64,000 nucleotides of DNA from a virus. Taxonomy: Duplodnaviria > Caudoviricetes. Position numbers and translations under genes: made by a program. The notes under the pieces are model-generated. The model worked only from the letters and a program-made list of their open reading frames with translations. It made no database searches and was not told the origin of the DNA. The stretch lies in the IMG/VR virus record IMGVR_UViG_3300028624_000003, positions 64,001 through 128,000 of that record. One strand, 5' to 3'. Shown piece by piece: positions 4,291 through 53,744 of the stretch. How positions within the stretch are numbered: the stretch's first letter is position 1; each line of letters begins with the position of its first letter.

Positions 4291-4650
4291 ATGGCAATTG
4301 GCTTCAAAAGCATGCAAGCGTTCGTCAAGAATACGATACATCCGTATATCGTGAACTTGCGCGATCTCTGGCGTGACGATGTCGCATGGCTGAAGTCACT
4401 AATAGACGCACTCGATGCCCGGTTGACTCAGGCTATCATAGACTGGAACAATCGGCTTAATGCGTTAGACGTTCGACTCAGTAATGCTATCAACTCGGTT
4501 ACGGCATCGCTCGATACCCACGCAAACCGTAAAGACAACCCACACCGGGTAAAGACCATTCAAACCGTATACGGTGGAACGTCTTATACCACACCACCTT
4601 CCGACTCACAAGGTGAAGTGGGTGACATCTATATCGAGCGTATCAACTAA
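4291..4650 (+). CDS. Short tail-fibre-like virion protein
   Basis: Coiled coil, HANRKDNPH motif, C-terminal PPSDSQGEVGDIYI fibre motif. Confidence 0.6.
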   Translation: MAIGFKSMQAFVKNTIHPYIVNLRDLWRDDVAWLKSLIDALDARLTQAIIDWNNRLNALDVRLSNAINSVTASLDTHANRKDNPHRVKTIQTVYGGTSYTTPPSDSQGEVGDIYIERIN

Positions 4651-4676
4651 TTACCTATCCCAGCGAGGCTAAATTC

Positions 4677-5615
4677 ATGGATATTGCACAATCGATCGTG
4701 TCGTTCAAATACGAACGCGGCCGTACCTCGTTTCTCGTAATCGACGGTTACGGATCTTTCCAACTCGATCAGTTCGAAAGTGCGGAATTCCCCTTCGATA
4801 ACGAAGGTACCCTTCTGTACGAACGTGACGAGCCAGAACAGTGCGTATACGGTCCTAAGTGGGACCGCAAGATGAGCGATGATCAGATCGCCAAGGTTCG
4901 TGAATTCGCAGGGACTCTTCCTGAGTCTCTTGAAATGCCTTTTACCGCGTACGATCCTGAAAGGGACAACATCTACGTGGGAGAAATGAGCATCAAAGAA
5001 GCTCGCAATGCTGGGTACGTCTGTACTACTGCACGACTCGATCATCCTGCATCCAAATTCGATGTCGCGAAATCCGCATGGACCCGAGTCAAAGCGGTTA
5101 TCACCGATGAAGGTACACTGGTACTCGACCCGTCTGGTTTCTGCGATCGGTGTGTCCTTTTCATGGATGAAGCAGAATGGTCTGTATTCCCGCATCCTGA
5201 CGAAGAACTCATCTCGATGGGAGTACTCAGGTACAATTTCAGTACTTCCACGTGGGACGACACACGCAGCAGCACAGATCTCCTTGACTCTCTTCGCATG
5301 AAGATTCACTCCGAGTGCGAGATGAAGATGATGAAGAAGGTTCAGGAGAGTGAAGTAAGCTGCTACGTGTGGAACTACAATACGGAAATCCTCCGCCAGC
5401 TTCGCAGAATGGCGGAAGTGAGTGGTTCCGAATTCCGTGGAGCTAACGAGATCGACGATCTCGATAACTTCGAGAAGGCTTTGAACTTGTTCCGTGTTCG
5501 TGCGATCAATAAGGTCGAAGATCTTCGTGCACTTGACGAATCTCAGGTGACGAAGGAATCCATTGCCGCACTCGAAACTGCGATCATTGCCGAACTGGAA
5601 TCATTCGCAAAGTAG
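4677..5615 (+). CDS. Putative tail fibre assembly/chaperone protein (paralogue of 36083-37006)
   Basis: Follows fibre gene; shares motif series with 36083-37006. Confidence 0.5.
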   Translation: MDIAQSIVSFKYERGRTSFLVIDGYGSFQLDQFESAEFPFDNEGTLLYERDEPEQCVYGPKWDRKMSDDQIAKVREFAGTLPESLEMPFTAYDPERDNIYVGEMSIKEARNAGYVCTTARLDHPASKFDVAKSAWTRVKAVITDEGTLVLDPSGFCDRCVLFMDEAEWSVFPHPDEELISMGVLRYNFSTSTWDDTRSSTDLLDSLRMKIHSECEMKMMKKVQESEVSCYVWNYNTEILRQLRRMAEVSGSEFRGANEIDDLDNFEKALNLFRVRAINKVEDLRALDESQVTKESIAALETAIIAELESFAK

Positions 5616-5622
5616 ATTACAC

Positions 5623-5656
5623 CATGAGAGATGCCCTGTTAGAGGCATCTCTCATG
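5623..5656 (+). terminator. Hairpin
   Basis: catgagagatgcc / ggcatctctcatg. Confidence 0.6.
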
Positions 5657-5750
5657 TATTCGATTTATGTCCATTCTGTAAAACTCTACAGGTGAATGCA
5701 ATTGTATAGTCTTCCCCAAAAATTTAAAAGCACAACCTGGGAGTACTCCC

Positions 5751-6683
5751 ATGAATTATACACCAGATCTCGAAACCCGGATGTCGACTGATGCGGAATT
5801 TGTGTGTTCCACAGTAGTCAACGATGTCGCGTACATTACAAATGCCACAGGAATCATCACCATCGACATGCATGTCAATAATGCAGAACATCGTGCACTA
5901 GTTCAGCACGCCAAGCGCGAAGGTAAAATTCTGGTACACCACATCAACTCTCCTACACTCAAGAAGTACGATCGTGTCGATATCTACAAGAAAGAATATT
6001 CCGAGTCCATTGACGTGTTCTGGTTGGTACAGCATTCCGGGCTGTTCGACGATACTTACGCAGTACGTTTTGATGAACACCCTGCCACCTGCCCATGTTG
6101 TGGTAGCTTCACAGTGCTGGATGAACTTGGTCTACACTGCATTAATTCACGGTGTGCTGCAAAAGTGTACAGATCGCTTATGCTCTACTGTGAGTGTTTC
6201 TATTCAGAGATCATCATGTCTGACTACCTATTACAGATACTCAGACGTCTGCTTCTAAATGATATCATTTCAGGTATACCTGATTTGTATGAAGTTACGG
6301 TCGAGCAAATCGATCAGTTGCAGATACCACGAGAAGATGCAATTGAGTTCGTTGAGCTGATACAAAGTAGACGAGGACATATCTCGTTCGAAAAGTATTT
6401 GACGTCTCTTAACATCGAATATTGGGCATATCTGGAGGACTACCCACAGTCACGTTCGGATAGTCCAAACACTGCCAGAATTCCCTTACTGCGTGAGGAT
6501 TCTGGTGCATTCCCTGACGTTGCTTCTTTTTGGGACTGGATGAAGAACATCGTTGATAGTGAGAGTTCGCCTCGTCCGTACATGAACGAAAGGATGTTCT
6601 ATTTAGTCTACAGATTCTTCTCGTGTTTGGAAAACAGAAAGGACTTGTACAGGTTGGAAGAACTGGGGGTCTTTCGTAAGTAA
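5751..6683 (+). CDS. NAD-dependent DNA ligase-like C-terminal domains (OB, Zn finger, HhH) without adenylation domain
   Basis: PATCPCCGS-x10-CINSRC Zn finger, then IPDLYEVT...YLTSLNI resembling LigA HhH; no KxDG. Confidence 0.65.
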   Translation: MNYTPDLETRMSTDAEFVCSTVVNDVAYITNATGIITIDMHVNNAEHRALVQHAKREGKILVHHINSPTLKKYDRVDIYKKEYSESIDVFWLVQHSGLFDDTYAVRFDEHPATCPCCGSFTVLDELGLHCINSRCAAKVYRSLMLYCECFYSEIIMSDYLLQILRRLLLNDIISGIPDLYEVTVEQIDQLQIPREDAIEFVELIQSRRGHISFEKYLTSLNIEYWAYLEDYPQSRSDSPNTARIPLLREDSGAFPDVASFWDWMKNIVDSESSPRPYMNERMFYLVYRFFSCLENRKDLYRLEELGVFRK

Positions 6684-6685
6684 AC

Positions 6686-6716
6686 ACACTAGGTGAGGGA
6701 TTACCTCACCTAGTGT
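6686..6716 (+). terminator. Hairpin
   Basis: acactaggtgagg / cctcacctagtgt. Confidence 0.6.
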
Positions 6717-6738
6717 AAATTCATCATTATGTCAGATA

Positions 6739-6754
6739 TACATTATAATTTTGA
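6739..6754 (+). promoter_or_regulatory. Putative early promoter
   Basis: tacattat-aattt-tga. Confidence 0.55.
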
Positions 6755-6850
6755 TGACCACATGAATTTCGTGTACATTAAAACACGCTGTGCACAATAT
6801 TGTGCACATAGTCCACCAACCCTTAACACATCTCCACAGCGGAGGACCCA

Positions 6851-7324
6851 ATGGAAGAGAACATCAAGACGGTTGAAGACGCTGCACGCTTCTTCAAGGA
6901 AAAGGGCGTCACGAAGGAAAACGGCACTGTCGTGCTGGCCAAGCCTGCGTACCTCGAATTCATGGCCGGCTGCGGCATCCCGAAGAAAGCGGTCGATCAG
7001 GTCACGCAAGCCAACTCGATGCTCATCGAAGCCGGGGTGGAAGTCGCCACCGGCGTGCTCACCAGCAAGATCAACGAAGGCAAGAAGGCCGGCAAGAATC
7101 CCAAGGAAAATCCTGTCGACTCGCGTGTCATCGTCGAGACTTCTGACGGCCGCATCGAAATCGCCCAGACCAGCTACCGTACCCGCCCCAACAACATGGC
7201 AGGTCCCGGCCAGATGTCGGAATCCTTCGGTCGTACGACCGTCAACCAGCGCTTCGGTCGTGCATACCCCAAGGGTAAGCGTGCCGAAATCAGTGAGCGT
7301 ATCCGCGCTCTGATCGAAGGGTAA
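6851..7324 (+). CDS. Hypothetical, probably highly expressed basic protein
   Basis: ggagg RBS; strong C-ending codon bias as in capsid gene. Confidence 0.75.
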   Translation: MEENIKTVEDAARFFKEKGVTKENGTVVLAKPAYLEFMAGCGIPKKAVDQVTQANSMLIEAGVEVATGVLTSKINEGKKAGKNPKENPVDSRVIVETSDGRIEIAQTSYRTRPNNMAGPGQMSESFGRTTVNQRFGRAYPKGKRAEISERIRALIEG

Positions 7325-7347
7325 TCCCAGAAGATCCCGGCCTCATA

Positions 7348-7379
7348 AGGGCGGTAGACTCTTCTCGGTTTGCCGCCCT
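7348..7379 (+). terminator. Hairpin with short U tract
   Basis: agggcggtagac / gtttgccgccct then cttt. Confidence 0.55.
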
Positions 7380-7604
7380 CTTTAAAACGATTACGTTATC
7401 AAATTGGCTAGGGTTAGATAAGGGTGGAAGGCAAAGGGGAGTGCTCGTTGTGAGCACTCCCCTGCGTCTCAAGTTTATGCTGCATTACGTGTGGAGAAGT
7501 CTACCTATACTGGTGGCTTTCTTCACCTACGTAAATAAATATACATCGGCTGGAAAGTTTTTATTCTGAAACGAACATATAACTTCCTCAAAAGGAGTTG
7601 ACTC

Positions 7605-48402: not shown

Positions 48403-48505
48403 ACATCGACCTCCTGAACAATAATAAAAATCACCACACTCGGTGGAGTTATTTCCTACACGCAATGGCATATCATGTGCTCAGATCCCAACGGATTTGT
48501 GCATA

Positions 48506-48521
48506 TATATCACTATTGTGA
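48506..48521 (+). promoter_or_regulatory. Putative early promoter of chimallin
   Basis: tatatcac-tattg-tga. Confidence 0.7.
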
Positions 48522-48609
48522 ACCCTGCTCTGATTGTTTGTGCAATTGGAGTAAAAACACTAACCAAGTTCTTGGCCAAGAGAACAAAACACAGTTACGG
48601 AGAGTTACC

Positions 48610-50238
48610 ATGGGTATCAAATTTGACGGCATCGACGACGACACCGTTGCTCAGGAATCCCAGCAGAACGTTGGTGGCGTCCATGACAACGTCAGCGCTC
48701 CTCGTCGTGACCTGGGTGCCGAACGTGCTGCTCGCAGCACGGCTACTGCAGGCCGCGGGTTCGAGCAGCTCATGTATTCGCTGCAGTCCTCGAACAAGCT
48801 CACCGAGACCGCAACCGGTTTCCTTGAAAGTGTGCGCAAGCAGGTCAGCAATCAGAACAAGAAGATTCAGTTCTTCGATCTTCCGAAGACCTGCACCTCC
48901 TTCTTCGTGGATGGTGCTGAATGCGTCGGCTTCGTCTTCGAAGAAGCGCTTCGTGAATCCCAGCTCCGCAAGGGTTCGGACACGATCCTCATGGAAGTCA
49001 TGAAGGACTTCGAGACTGCCACCATCGACAAGAAGGGTGCCGAGAAGATCCTCGACATCGTGATCGTCACCTCCGACAGCTACGGTAAGAGCAACGTCTG
49101 GTCCAATTTCGTCGTGAACACTCTTCGTTCGGACGACTACGCCAGCCTGAAGTTCACCAACATGAACGCCAACAACGTGCGGTACTCCCTCGTGAGCGAC
49201 CTTCGTCAGGTGAAGGAAATGTTCTCCGACATGTCTCCTCACGCGACACCGGCGCGCATCGACTTCGGTTGCTCGGTCACCATGGAAGTGATGCCCGACG
49301 ATCGCCGCGACTACACTCGCGAAGATCATGACGAAATCCCCATCGGTGTTATCGGCGGCTACACCCGCTTCTACCTGATCGATGACCTGCAGGATGTCAA
49401 GTTCCAGCCTGTCATCTGCATCAGTGACATCCAGTCGAACATCCGGAACCATCGTGTTCTGCCCATCCTGCTTGCCAGCTTCCTTGACTACGCGGTCAAT
49501 GCGAAGGGCTGGCTTTCCCCGTACAGCCAGTTCGGTCCCAACAACCCGAACCTCGGCAACCTCTGGATCGATCCCGAAACTGACCAGCCGGTTGAGCTGG
49601 AATCTCTGGATCGTCTCGACCGCTTCGTGCGTGCCAAGTTCCTCGAACCCGTGGTCGTCTGCGAAATCCAGCCTGGCCGTGCGGGTATCCCGTCGCTGTG
49701 GCGCTACGCCGATCCGAAGCAGCAGGGCTTCATGCTTCAGGATCTCGCAGAATACCTGAACGCTCCTCAGATCGCAGATCTCGGCGAGCTCTTCGTGCCT
49801 CACTACGAACATCTGTCGTACTCCGGCTACGTTCAGGACCGTGGGGTCTGGATCGATACCCGCGAAATCGACTACTTCCGTGCCATCGGCATCACCCGTG
49901 ATCGTGATCTGCGTGATCGGTTCATCATCCCCGAAGACGACATGTCCGCAGAAATCGACAACATCAAGGAACTCGGTTTCAAGGAAGTCCGTCGCATCTG
50001 GACCACGTACCCCTGCAGCATCGCTACCAACAGCCTCGAACAGATCCTTGTTCACATGGGTGCTGGTGGTGGTCTCGCGCTTCGTACCGACTACAAGCAG
50101 CGCATGACGGTGAGTGTTTCCAGCTACACCGACCTCGGTCGCGGCATGCGCGACATCCTGCAGCGCAACCAGGTTACCAACCGGTTCCCGCTGATGGAAC
50201 GTGGTCGACGCAGCCTGCGAAACCTCAGCGGTCGCTAG
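48610..50238 (+). CDS. chmA: Probable chimallin (phage nucleus shell protein)
   Basis: 542 aa, extreme codon bias, early promoter, directly upstream of nvRNAP beta'-like gene as in phiKZ gp54-gp55; GY...DTREIDY motif resembles chimallins. Confidence 0.72.
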   Translation: MGIKFDGIDDDTVAQESQQNVGGVHDNVSAPRRDLGAERAARSTATAGRGFEQLMYSLQSSNKLTETATGFLESVRKQVSNQNKKIQFFDLPKTCTSFFVDGAECVGFVFEEALRESQLRKGSDTILMEVMKDFETATIDKKGAEKILDIVIVTSDSYGKSNVWSNFVVNTLRSDDYASLKFTNMNANNVRYSLVSDLRQVKEMFSDMSPHATPARIDFGCSVTMEVMPDDRRDYTREDHDEIPIGVIGGYTRFYLIDDLQDVKFQPVICISDIQSNIRNHRVLPILLASFLDYAVNAKGWLSPYSQFGPNNPNLGNLWIDPETDQPVELESLDRLDRFVRAKFLEPVVVCEIQPGRAGIPSLWRYADPKQQGFMLQDLAEYLNAPQIADLGELFVPHYEHLSYSGYVQDRGVWIDTREIDYFRAIGITRDRDLRDRFIIPEDDMSAEIDNIKELGFKEVRRIWTTYPCSIATNSLEQILVHMGAGGGLALRTDYKQRMTVSVSSYTDLGRGMRDILQRNQVTNRFPLMERGRRSLRNLSGR

Positions 50239-50329: not shown

Positions 50330-51637
50330 TTGAAGAAGTCCAGCGTGTTCAGTAAGAAGAATCTGATCAGACTGATCGATTTCGATAAACTGCATGCCGA
50401 TTCTCCTGGGGCAAGAGCACTCAATGACTCTGACTTAACAGGACGAAAACAAGCAGCAGAACGAATAAGTCAGGCGTTCTACGACATTGAAGCAGAACTA
50501 GGGTTTGTAGCTTCTTGTCAATGCAAAGAGTATCGAGGCAACTACTACGCGGGACATGTCTGCAAGATCTGTGGTACTGTGGTATCTACTGAATTTGCAG
50601 AAAATATCGAGCACGTGAATTGGCTGATCCTACCAGATCACGTCCCGCCTGTCATGCACCCGGTATTCTTTGCTGCACTGAACTCATTCCTGGGAAAAGT
50701 CAAAGTCAACGACGCAAAGCTGGGGAAGAAAAGTATCCCACTTCTGCAGTCTATACTGGATCCCAGTGAAGAACTATTCGAGCCAGTAAAGACACACATC
50801 AGAGCGCAAGGCTTCCGGTACTTCTACAAGCACTGCAAAGAAATCATGAACTTCTTCTTTGAAGTCTATCCAAAGACAAAAAGTAAGAAGGACGTCATAC
50901 ACATCCGTGCTCTTTATGAAGAGTACAAAGACAGGATGTGGGTCAAAAAGATACCGGCACTACATCCTACACTCACGCCACAGGCCAAAGAGTGCAGGGT
51001 ACGTACAATCGACCATGCTGCCGGTTACATCATGTCAGCAGCTGCTGACCTCTCTGCTCTATCCTACGAATCCAAGCGATGTATTACTGATTCGAAGTAT
51101 GTCGACCGTCAGCTATGGAAGATGTACGTCAACGTCATCAAGTACACTGAACAGATTCTCGAGAAGAAGTTCGGTGACAAATATGCACACGCTAGACGCC
51201 ACGTCATGGGCGCACGGATTCATTTTTCTGCCAGATCCGTCATCGTACCTATCGTAGAGCCTCACATGGGTGATGAGATTCATCTCCCATGGAAGATCGC
51301 ACTAGGTGGCCTCAAACTCGAGATTCTGAACATCTTGACCACTCGCAGTGTGATAGATGTAGAAGATGAACATGGCGAGCGTGTAAAGAGACCGCACACA
51401 ATCGCCGAGGCCACAGCCAAATATATGCGGGCACTCGTCGTATACGACGAAGACATCAAGAAGGTCATCGATCTCTTGATCAAAGAGTGTCCGTGTAAGG
51501 GTCTACCAATACTTTGCGGGCGCAACCCGACGCTCGTACTGGGTGCAATTCAGCTTCTGTACTTTACCAAGGTAAAGACGGATATGGCAGATGAAACCAT
51601 CGCCATATCTCCTCGAATCTGCAAAGCACCCAATGCT
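50330..51637 (+). CDS. nvRNAP beta'-like subunit (phiKZ gp55-like), exon 1
   Basis: Zn ribbon CQC...CKIC, GARIHFSARSVI, GRNPTL; ends KAPNA, the start of NADFDGD. Confidence 0.88.
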
Positions 51638-52573
51638 AAATACAACTCCTCGTTGCACATCGCCCCTAGCAGGAGGCGTACATGCAGCAGTTCGTCAATT
51701 TACCTGGAAAATACTCAGGATATTCAATATCCGCGGACGGTAGAATTCTCGACAACTCTACCGGACAGTTGGTAGTTCCTACCAAAGGTAAAAATACTCC
51801 GTACTACGGGGTCACAATGCGTCTAGTTGGTGATGCTCGAAGTACTACACAACTAGTGCATCGACTGATCGCATTGGCCTTTGTTCCAAATGAAACAGGA
51901 ATATCAGCAGACGAGTTACAGGTCAATCACATCAATGGGAACAAACTCGACAACCGTCCATGTAATCTTGAGTGGGTCACTCAGCAACAAAATTGCGCGC
52001 ATGCGTATCGAACAGGTTTGCGAAACGACAATAAACCTATTCGCATGGTTGCAGAGAATACAGGTGAGACTAGTATAGTCTACAGCTTATCCGAAGCTGC
52101 TAGACTGCTAGGTGTGCACCCTGCCTCACTTCATGAGCACATGAACACAGAACGTCGACAATGTTTACCATATCGTGGATACTACGTAACTTATCACGAC
52201 GATCGTCTAGATCGTTTTCAGAATAGGGTACGGCGTATGTGCGAAGGGAGTTGGTAAATTGGCTCGCGCAGAAGTAATTCTGTGACGATAATCTCCTTAA
52301 TTGCTGGGAACCCCTTAGAGCTCTCGTAGCTACAACGTAAGGATGAAATATGCCTAAGCGTGACAGCTCAAAAATACGAGAGATTGGGCAATCAGCAGCC
52401 AAGCTCCGAATAGGAGAAGGTTCAACGACTATTCCTGAAATGGAAGTACAGACTAAGCAGTCTGGGAATAGGAGACACCCTACTGGGGTGAAGATATAGT
52501 CTCATCTTTAGTGAAAGCTAAAGCTGCAGGTAATGCTGCGAGTACCATCTAGCGAATGGTACTGAAGATAATG
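51638..52573 (+). mobile_element. Group I intron 1 with HNH endonuclease ORF upstream of the core (P1 region)
   Basis: Upstream exon ends in U; P aattgctgggaa 52299, Q aatcagcagc 52390, R gttcaacgactat 52420, S aagatatagtc 52491; P3 tctcct/aggaga; terminal G 52573. Confidence 0.9.
51682..52257 (+). CDS. Intron-encoded HNH homing endonuclease (NUMOD4-HNH-NUMOD1-like)
   Basis: YSISADGRI, VHRLIALAF, QVNHINGNKLDNRPCNLEWVT, YSLSEAARLLG; aggagg RBS. Confidence 0.9.
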   Translation: MQQFVNLPGKYSGYSISADGRILDNSTGQLVVPTKGKNTPYYGVTMRLVGDARSTTQLVHRLIALAFVPNETGISADELQVNHINGNKLDNRPCNLEWVTQQQNCAHAYRTGLRNDNKPIRMVAENTGETSIVYSLSEAARLLGVHPASLHEHMNTERRQCLPYRGYYVTYHDDRLDRFQNRVRRMCEGSW

Positions 52574-52582
52574 GATTTCGAT
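52574..52582 (+). CDS. 9-nt micro-exon encoding DFD of the RNAP catalytic motif (exon 2)
   Basis: gat ttc gat, preceded by intron-terminal G; pairs with IGS gtcgaaat 52589-52596 with a U.G pair at the splice site. Confidence 0.87.
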
Positions 52583-53540
52583 TCACAGGTCGAAATAAAA
52601 TCCCGGAATAAAGCAGGGACGGTCTGCTCGACCCAATCTGAACCGAAGGCTACTAGGGATAGTAGTCAGGGGCAACGCGTAGTCTCAGGGCTAGAACAGC
52701 TATCAGGGACCACGAGGCCGGGACATTCGAGAGTATTCGCACTGAGGAGAACTAGTGGAGAATACTGTGGAAATTCCTGGGTATCCAGGATACCGAGCAT
52801 CACGAGACGGACACGTCTGGAGTACATACAGCAATAAGTGGTTGTGCGAGATGCTGCACCGGCGAGGATACCCTCAGGTGTTGCTGAAAATCGACAAATC
52901 GACCTACAGATTGCGGTATGTTCATCGGTTAGTAGCACTGGCATTTATCCCAAATCCAAAACTGATGACTCAGGTCAATCATATCGATGGCAATAAACAG
53001 AACAATTGCGTCGATAATTTGGAGTGGGTAGATAACCTAGAGAATGCGCGACATGCGATGGCTCATGGGCTGATGCCACATGCAAAAATCGATGAGCCGA
53101 CAGCTCACGTCATTTGTCAGAGATTGGAGAATGGCGAAAAAGTGGTGGATATTGCAAGGGACTTAAATGTACCCTACTATACCGTACACGCCATTCGGCT
53201 AGGTAGAAACTGGAAAGAAGTATCTACTCAGTACACAATCCCTGGGAAAAGAAAACGTAGAGTTGTCTTTACACCAGAAGAAGTCAGACACATCTATTAC
53301 AACGCGGTTGTGAAGGGGTATCCAATTGGAACTCTAGCGGAGCAATACCAGGTGGATCCAGAGCTTATACGCAGGATTGCTTCTGGTAAAAACTACCGAA
53401 AAATAACCCGAGAGATGTGCGATGCTTTCGAATGAAAACGTACGCTGAGCTGCGCTTATACGAGCTCCTACCGAAAGTAGGACCCAGAAATGGGAAGGCG
53501 CAGAACTATCGGATAAAAAGCCGGTAGGGTAACATAACTG
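52583..53540 (+). mobile_element. Group I intron 2 with HNH endonuclease ORF in the P8 loop
   Basis: P1 with U.G; P3 tcccgg/ccggga; P7 gcgta/tacgc; P8 cattcga/tcgaatg enclosing the ORF; P10 tcac/gtga; terminal G 53540. Confidence 0.85.
52755..53435 (+). CDS. Intron-encoded HNH homing endonuclease (NUMOD4-HNH with C-terminal HTH-like repeats)
   Basis: IPGYPGYRASRDG, VHRLVALAFIPNP, QVNHIDGNKQNNCVDNLEWV; gaggag RBS, GTG start. Confidence 0.9.
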   Translation: MENTVEIPGYPGYRASRDGHVWSTYSNKWLCEMLHRRGYPQVLLKIDKSTYRLRYVHRLVALAFIPNPKLMTQVNHIDGNKQNNCVDNLEWVDNLENARHAMAHGLMPHAKIDEPTAHVICQRLENGEKVVDIARDLNVPYYTVHAIRLGRNWKEVSTQYTIPGKRKRRVVFTPEEVRHIYYNAVVKGYPIGTLAEQYQVDPELIRRIASGKNYRKITREMCDAFE

Positions 53541-53744
53541 GGTGACGAAATGTACATCATCTTCATCAAGGAGATGGGTATGGTTCCGTTTCTACAAACA
53601 CTACACCCACGGATGACGATGATTTCTAAGTCGGACTTGTCGGTAGGCGAACTGGTCATGCCTACAAGTCAGGCTACGGTACATCTCAACTCATTCCTCA
53701 ACATGGGGTTGGATGCACCGAGATCGCAGAGATTCGAACTATAA
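53541..53744 (+). CDS. nvRNAP beta'-like subunit, exon 3
   Basis: Begins ggt gac gaa atg (GDEM), completing NADFDGDEM; spliced product 506 aa. Confidence 0.87.
   Translation, partial: GDEMYIIFIKEMGMVPFLQTLHPRMTMISKSDLSVGELVMPTSQATVHLNSFLNMGLDAPRSQRFEL

Follow-up and report, generated by a model that had tools for sequence, protein, structure and literature searches.

The locus lies in a 64,000-nt stretch of DNA from a virus of the Caudoviricetes (the window; positions 64,001 to 128,000 of IMG/VR record IMGVR_UViG_3300028624_000003), whose record is complete at 221 kb and has terminal repeats. On the plus strand, the gene of a predicted RNA polymerase subunit is interrupted by two introns, each of which carries an HNH endonuclease gene. 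The introns are separated by a micro-exon of only nine nucleotides. The coordinates of all features are collected in Table 1.

Exon 1 matches the profile phrog_2987, annotated 'RNA polymerase beta subunit' (E 1.9e-69), and a tblastn search with it returns PHIKZ055 and 246 further jumbo-phage records at about 26% identity. Exon 3 is 76% identical to the metagenome homolog P0003 (tblastn). Joining the three exons gives a stop-free open reading frame of 506 amino acids, which aligns without gaps across both junctions with the intronless metagenome homologs P0003, P0004 and P0005 (59-68% identity; 69% between the spliced frame and P0003), for which PF00623 is the recorded domain. All three homologs and the spliced frame read ...KAPNADFDGDEMY... 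at this place. The micro-exon supplies two of the three catalytic aspartates of the motif NADFDGD. The family profile match and the motif, which is intact after splicing, identify the predicted product as the beta' subunit of a multisubunit RNA polymerase of the phiKZ gp55 type. Standard gene finding calls the host frame as a truncated protein of 481 amino acids.

Table 1 Features of the interrupted polymerase gene (positions are those of the window).
Feature	Position	Strand	Remarks
Host gene, phiKZ gp55-like nvRNAP beta'-N subunit	50330-53744	+	three exons, two introns
Exon 1	50330-51637	+	ends ...KAPNA; TTG start at 50330 or a few codons downstream
Intron 1, group I, 936 nt	51638-52573	+	follows exon U51637; terminal G52573
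Long-range helix of intron 1, 5' strand caactcc(t)	51643-51650	+	pairs with 52246-52253, looping out the intron 1 HNH gene
Intron 1 HNH homing endonuclease gene (predicted), 191 aa	51682-52257	+	in the P1 loop; stop TAA 52255-52257 within the guide region
Intron 1 ribozyme core (P2 to P9 and tail to terminal G)	52242-52573	+	from Rfam alignment; wholly downstream of the HNH gene
Intron 1 guide region	52246-52263	+	gggagttg pairs with the intron 5' end; attgg 52258-52262 with exon ccaat 51630-51634
Micro-exon gatttcgat	52574-52582	+	Asp-Phe-Asp of NADFDGD; read from sequence
P1 of intron 2	52575-52596	+	exon strand 52575-52582, loop 52583-52588 (tcacag), guide 52589-52596
Intron 2, group I, 958 nt, predicted IA-like family	52583-53540	+	terminal G53540
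Intron 2 P3	52601-06/52718-23	+	
Intron 2 P4	52614-17/52637-40	+	
Intron 2 P6	52648-53/52662-67	+	
Intron 2 P7	52677-81/53441-45	+	
Intron 2 P8	52724-30/53428-34	+	
Intron 2 P9	53450-55/53498-503	+	
Intron 2 P9.1	53506-12/53521-27	+	
Intron 2 HNH homing endonuclease gene (predicted), 226 aa	52755-53435	+	GTG start; in the P8 loop; its final codons make up the P8 3' strand
Exon 3	53541-53744	+	GDEMYIIFIKEMG..., GDEMY at its start; runs to the stop codon

Intron 1 is a group I intron. The Rfam model RF00028 matches it at 52242-52523 over model positions 1-253 with 84.4 bits (E 4.8e-20), well above the gathering cut-off of 50 bits. Its HNH gene matches PF13392 (HNH_3, E 5.4e-11) and phrog_59 (E 4.6e-38); the activity and target of the enzyme are predicted only. 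The two ends of the long-range helix that loops this gene out form a duplex with a minimum energy of -17.3 kcal/mol (RNAduplex). A natural variant, a 5410-nt contig encoding P0002, carries C51649U and G52247A on one molecule, a compensatory change that keeps the helix as aactcu/agaguu. Analogous helices of 12-21 bp span the reading frames of the introns in L008, L011, L015 and L017. The local 'P1' in the Rfam alignments of intron 1 (52246-52267) and of the L008 intron was rejected as an artefact, in which the long-range P1 is forced into a local hairpin.

The 5' splice site of intron 1 offers more than one register. U51637 has three candidate G partners (G52253, G52254 and G52261), and an exhaustive search for U.G-anchored guides in the introns inserted between NA and D gave no single conserved register. 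The guide pairing (U)UGG(G)/CC(U)AA(U) of intron 1 is also found in phiKZ and in L021, where the RF00028 model sets the 5' splice site after CACCU. Another candidate guide near the 5' end, ggcgt at 51675-51679, was dropped because the homologs place the guide after the reading frame. The intron of phiKZ gp55/gp56 has a homologous ribozyme of the RF00028 type, likewise downstream of an HNH gene (75.6 bits).

Intron 2 gives no match to RF00028 at E values up to 10. The same model also misses the ORF-less relatives of intron 2 and the related copies in two further phages; it cannot span the 680-nt reading frame and misses this subfamily. Listeria phage LIS04 contains one of these copies (blastn E 9e-5), in an intein-bearing gene, and Bacillus phage vB_BpuM-BpSp the other (E 1e-3), just before the EYHPHGD motif of gyrA; both belong to the same ribozyme family as intron 2, and neither is annotated as an intron. 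We aligned intron 2 with the ORF-less introns of the other jumbo phages L008, L011 and L019, the ORF-bearing introns of L014 and L021, and these two unannotated copies. The helices fall in group I order (P3, P4, P6, P7, P7.1, P8, P9 and P9.1), including the P3/P7 pseudoknot. Canonical pairs occupy 338 of the 365 helix cells, and all helices show compensatory changes apart from P5, which the automatic alignment misplaces. In P7, for example, the window has GCGUA/UACGC and all others have GCAUA/UAUGC.

Counted on the five foreign sequences alone, pairing reaches 92.6% and 17 pairs have changed on both sides, a result that 500 shuffles never equalled; slid controls gave 29-38%. A covariance model of the 5' half of the family, R1, built from five foreign introns only, finds 52595-52727 with 72.6 bits (E 2.7e-18) as the sole copy in the genome. 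RF00028 matches intron 1 only and R1 intron 2 only, which places the two in different families. The comparison identifies intron 2 as a group I intron with a P1 that has U.G at the 5' splice site, a terminal G and covarying helices from P3 to P9. Subgroup IA is characterised by additional helices between P7 and P3 (P7.1/P7.2), and from its own P7.1/P7.2 helices we take intron 2 to be IA-like. Its HNH gene matches PF13392 (E 4.7e-9) and phrog_59 (E 1.2e-52), again with activity and target predicted only, and the two endonucleases share 38% identity over 115 amino acids.

Relatives of the locus were recovered by alignment-based scans. Viral contigs scanned with a pattern from a single protein gave no hit, nor did the phage collection when searched with the locus by megablast. 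Homolog proteins end after GRNP, KAP, NA, DFD and DFDG; for P0002, P0009, P0012-P0014 and P0016 the intron sites were read from such protein ends only. A 12-nt micro-exon (DFDG) between an RF00028 intron upstream and an intron 2-type intron downstream is present in L008, L009, L010, L018 and L023, where it reads GATTTTGACGGT, and in L011 and L022. L021 has the same arrangement around a 15-nt micro-exon (NADYD). In L017, two RF00028 introns (cores 6089-6469 and 7061-7384) enclose a 6-nt micro-exon, AATGCT (NA). The upstream introns of these relatives were found by Rfam and the downstream intron of L021 by R1; the downstream introns of L008 and L011 were used to build R1, so that their support is the helix covariation. 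Other relatives have no micro-exon: L012, L014 and L019 carry the intron 2 type only, L015 the upstream type only, and L007 and L013 have the motif without an intron. On these predicted positions, the gene family has an insertion hot spot at the catalytic motif, which in many uncultured jumbo phages is hit by two ribozyme families at five sites within about 21 nt (between P and N, N and A, A and D, D and G, and G and D). Tiny exons shared by two predicted ribozymes have evidently arisen repeatedly, and their dual use appears to be tolerated.

Contigs from four public runs, the metatranscriptomes X3 and X4 and the presumed DNA runs X2 and X5, were compared with the window. An RNA-library contig of X4 joins exon 1 (51466-51637, 172 nt) to GATTTCGAT and on to exon 3 from 53541 (30 nt). 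This joined contig, a single Logan contig of 202 nt at depth 4.6, matches the window without a mismatch. At the level of a low-depth contig, both introns are excised exactly, the micro-exon is kept and NADFDGD is restored in RNA. Other X4 contigs contain parts of the introns or run unspliced from intron 2 into exon 3; precursor RNA or DNA must therefore be present as well. The RNA contigs leave 52412-52594 uncovered, so that splicing intermediates are not visible and their order is not readable.

The DNA contigs reveal variation in intron content. In X2, 52582 is joined to exon 3, with GGA replacing GGT, and this joint therefore represents an allele with intron 1 and without intron 2. In X5, the HNH gene of intron 1 is largely deleted in the variant encoding P0002, and a second contig has the HNH gene of intron 2 replaced by 40 nt. 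Such polymorphism, in presence or absence and in the deletion of reading frames, fits mobility followed by decay. A joint from 51492 to 53568 in X5 (side 20) was set aside as probably foreign. The runs containing at least half of the sampled words came from activated sludge, wastewater, sludge and one invertebrate metagenome.

The original prediction assigned the micro-exon a dual role, as 3' exon for intron 1 and as 5' exon, the P1 substrate, for intron 2, and this assignment holds. Its claim that eight of the nine exon bases pair with the intron 2 guide was confirmed: atttcgat and gtcgaaat form seven Watson-Crick pairs and U52582.G52589 at the splice site. The hairpin has a predicted energy of -6.5 kcal/mol, with one intron pair added (RNAfold), and persists in a 100-nt context. 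When the 40 nt downstream of the micro-exon were shuffled, at least eight contiguous pairs arose in 0.8% of cases. The homologs provide stronger evidence than the shuffles because the guide tracks the exon: P1 covaries with the exon in five to six homologous introns. L014 has atttcgat/gtcgaagt, and L021 has tacgat/gtcgta, where the change of a Phe codon to a Tyr codon (TTC to TAC) is mirrored in the guide. In L008, L011 and L019 the site lies 3 nt further downstream and the pairing is gacggt/gccgtc. The P1 of intron 2 lies within the micro-exon alone, and L014 forms the same 8 bp without an upstream intron; intron 2 would therefore be independent of intron 1. The family also has a convincing predicted P10 with its own 3' exon, GACGAG/CUCGUU in L008 and GGUGA/UCACU in L021. 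In the window, the loop sequence tcac may pair with gtga of exon 3 (53542-53545).

These observations lead us to a reading that we consider likely: the 23 bases at 52574-52596 are the P1 of the second of two unrelated mobile introns, which homed independently and are spliced independently. The introns would have entered adjacent sites of the NADFDGD hot spot in the nvRNAP beta' subunit, intron 1 (RF00028 type, HNH gene in the P1 loop) between NA and D and intron 2 (IA-like, HNH gene in the P8 loop) between DFD and G, and the 9 nt left between the two insertions would have become the micro-exon. During transcription, the guide of intron 2, only 6 nt downstream, would capture the micro-exon in a local hairpin of 8 bp, for which exon 1 is not required. 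The 3' splice site of intron 1 would be found mainly through its terminal G and core, with a P10 that is at most weak and dispensable. With a local hairpin and a dispensable P10, the splicing reactions would be independent and either order possible, although intron 1 is probably more often the first to leave, since transcription completes its ribozyme about 960 nt ahead of that of intron 2. If the micro-exon is skipped at all, this would be no more than a minor side reaction, and a costly one, not a designed valve.

The original prediction saw the micro-exon differently, as contested between the two ribozymes: competition between a P10 of intron 1 and the P1 of intron 2 would enforce a splicing order, and an NA-GD product lacking the micro-exon would be a regulatory valve or a fitness cost. 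The proposed P10 can be drawn, between gatttc at 52574-52579 and ggagtt at 52247-52252, and its exon strand does overlap the P1 of intron 2. With U51637 paired to G52253 it is the canonical P10, contiguous with P1 in textbook style. As a helix, though, it is no better than chance. Three of its six pairs are G.U, its energy is -3.2 to -3.8 kcal/mol, against the guide region of intron 1 that energy is reached by 74% of shuffled exons, and among random 9-mers 24% form runs of at least six pairs there. Moreover, ggagtt has a perfect Watson-Crick partner in aactcc (51644-51649). The compensatory change in the P0002 contig supports this alternative pairing over the P10, as G52247A preserves the former and destroys the C52579-G52247 pair of the latter. 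No comparable P10 was found in the homologous introns of L008, L011 and L017, inserted between NA and D. The idea of mutually exclusive pairings rests on this chance-level, unconserved helix and is not supported.

The proposed skip product is in frame, as had been stated: loss of three codons would remove two catalytic aspartates and leave a computed product of 503 amino acids. A precedent exists in phage Twort, which also has several group I introns in one gene and for which spliced products lacking an exon were reported (Landthaler and Shub 1999, as described in PMC3073962). Twort is the sole phage precedent for skipping that we found; on the same account its introns are mutually similar, whereas those of the window belong to different structural families and have no skip product in contigs. 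The contig search of the four runs, which bears directly on the suggested 51637-to-53541 product, gave the inclusion junction only, and a joint without the nine letters was absent. This is a weak negative, as contigs drop rare variants, and skipping at a few percent as well as intermediates would be invisible in them. Single-intron alleles exist both ways, with intron 1 alone (X2) and with the intron 2 type alone (L014, L012 and L019). Since the P1 of intron 2 needs the micro-exon only and such alleles exist, an obligatory order is unsupported. Overall, neither a forced splicing order nor a regulated skip product is supported, and we regard the competition model as unlikely.

A dependence in the opposite direction can also be envisaged, in which intron 1 finds its 3' exon masked by the P1 of intron 2 until intron 2 has left, or in which the hairpin serves intron 1 as a landmark. 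The hairpin starts 1 nt past G52573, the last base of intron 1, and has the lowest predicted energy in its context, and a downstream P1 is equally close in every relative with a micro-exon. The intron 1 type nevertheless works with a continuous 3' exon in L017 (DFDGDE) and in the X2 allele, and therefore does not need the hairpin; nor do these data indicate that the hairpin inhibits intron 1. We see very little chance that either form of this dependence applies. Slighter still is the prospect that the joined contig stems from DNA or RNA of an intronless strain with identical flanks, one intron being possibly inactive: RNA libraries may contain DNA, these populations are polymorphic for intron presence (the X2 allele lacks intron 2) and more distant phages have intronless homologs (L007 and L013), but the contig agrees with the window at every one of its 202 nt (100% identity), where other strains differ at many sites, a fully intronless joint is absent from the contigs of the DNA runs X2 and X5, both ribozyme cores are intact and conserved, and the genome is complete, whereas an unspliced interruption of NADFDGD in an essential polymerase subunit would be lethal.

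Among the nearest known systems is the intron of phiKZ gp55, which is known in the literature (PMC11512511). HNH introns at the catalytic aspartates of jumbo-phage RNA polymerases act in phage competition (PMC11620839). The phiKZ gene 55/gp56 intron and those of the window interrupt the same nvRNAP beta'-N family at the same catalytic motif. In contrast to the window, where an unrelated second intron lies 9 nt downstream of the first, phiKZ has a single intron, between N and A and 3 nt upstream of the intron 1 site, and no micro-exon. The intron of PhiPA3 gp210, in an RNA polymerase beta gene, is grouped with that of phiKZ gp55/gp56 among these systems.

Exons of this size are familiar from mitochondria. 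Mini-exons of less than about four codons occur there regularly between group I introns, down to 3 or 1 nt; they result where introns crowd into conserved motifs, and gene finders routinely overlook them (PMC8971849, PMC10352661). The nine nucleotides in the window, with group I introns on both sides, fall within the mitochondrial definition, and the corresponding exons of the relatives measure 6, 12 and 15 nt. The mitochondrial cases (fungal cox1 and others) are organellar, mostly with LAGLIDADG or GIY-YIG genes and often with protein-assisted splicing, whereas the window concerns a phage mRNA, HNH genes and the active site of an RNA polymerase. Our literature search found no description of micro-exons in phage genes or of the five-site hot spot.

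The locus provides a natural case, with RNA support, in which a three-codon exon of a phage gene encodes two of an essential enzyme's catalytic residues. It also holds a lesson for annotation, as the micro-exon is missed by standard gene callers and intron 2 by Rfam. A P1 that needs just 3-8 exon bases would let introns stack at a spacing of 6-15 nt. The hot spot may be useful for studying shifts of homing endonuclease targets in 3-nt steps, and for asking how a second intron invades beside a resident one.

The two introns, a natural pair, also lend themselves to the study of how neighbouring ribozymes are coordinated. It is a distinctly improbable proposition that competition between them sets, through folding kinetics, the yield of active polymerase mRNA and of a dominant-negative NA-GD subunit, and so throttles the switch to middle and late transcription. 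If true in a nucleus-forming phage, the competition would take place in a ribosome-free compartment and would amount to a throttle imposed by introns. If splicing is merely independent, the locus would stand as an annotation lesson and would extend mini-exons of the mitochondrial style to phages.

Micro-exons between group I introns recur in RNA polymerase genes of other phages (see table). Those of L008, L011 and L021 fall in the same catalytic motif, NADFDGD, as the 9-nt DFD exon of the beta' gene studied here, in phages only 45-55% identical to ours. The 12-nt form of locus L008 was found in five contigs, one of which (L023) comes from a human gut assembly. In locus L017 the same gene carries a third intron farther upstream, at GRNP|TL (core 4506-4845). 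In L008, the HNH gene within the intron contains, at its 3' end, AAATGATTTCGAATATCGGAATTATT (7065-7090), a local hairpin which Rfam aligns as P1 with a U.G pair and whose 5' strand is similar to the DFD target sequence; this may be a coincidence or a decoy.

Features in other phages and in the window
Feature	Position	Remark
L017 micro-exon, AATGCT, 6 nt, Asn-Ala	6521-6526 (within 4998-7436)	flanked by two Rfam-verified group I introns
L008 micro-exon, 12 nt, DFDG	7460-7471	same catalytic motif as window
L011 micro-exon, 12 nt, DFDG	7151-7162	same catalytic motif as window
L021 micro-exon, 15 nt, NADYD	1298-1312	same catalytic motif as window
Intron 2-family ribozyme, Listeria phage LIS04 (L003)	about 2016-2209	unannotated; RF00028 fails to detect
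Intron 2-family ribozyme, Bacillus phage vB_BpuM-BpSp (L004)	about 1970-2283	unannotated; RF00028 fails to detect
587-aa ORF	window 48475-50238	immediately upstream of gp55 homolog

Sequencing run X5 contains natural variants of introns 1 and 2 from which the HNH genes are deleted (window 51640-52178 and 52732-53417), with 46 and 40 nt, respectively, left in place. The twin introns thus persist once their mobility genes are lost. The homologous protein P0002 is the read-through product of the first deletion. In the window itself, the unspliced exon 1 frame stays open for 45 codons into intron 1 (51638-51775), so that gene callers give a truncated 481-aa protein without DFDGD. The Shine-Dalgarno sequence aggagg (51671-51676) of the intron 1 HNH gene can pair with ctcct (51646-51650).

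Relatives of the intron 2 ribozyme occur in two further phages. The BpSp element ends immediately ahead of the gyrA EYHPHGD motif, and the LIS04 element lies downstream of an 'endonuclease' gene, within an intein-bearing gene. Outside the window, our phage's own genome holds a third group I intron (RF00028, 90.8 bits; in L005 1-3301, corresponding to G000:C1:185884-189184), which carries a 339-aa HNH gene and interrupts a further gene for an RNA polymerase beta subunit (phrog_3148), the flanking ORFs matching profile positions 907-1051 and 1075-1421. This arrangement is of the same kind as that of the PhiPA3 gp210 intron.

The 587-aa ORF found no match in a PHROG search. In phiKZ, the corresponding position is occupied by the nuclear shell protein gp54, and this synteny alone suggests that the ORF encodes a divergent chimallin, which in turn suggests that the phage forms a nucleus.
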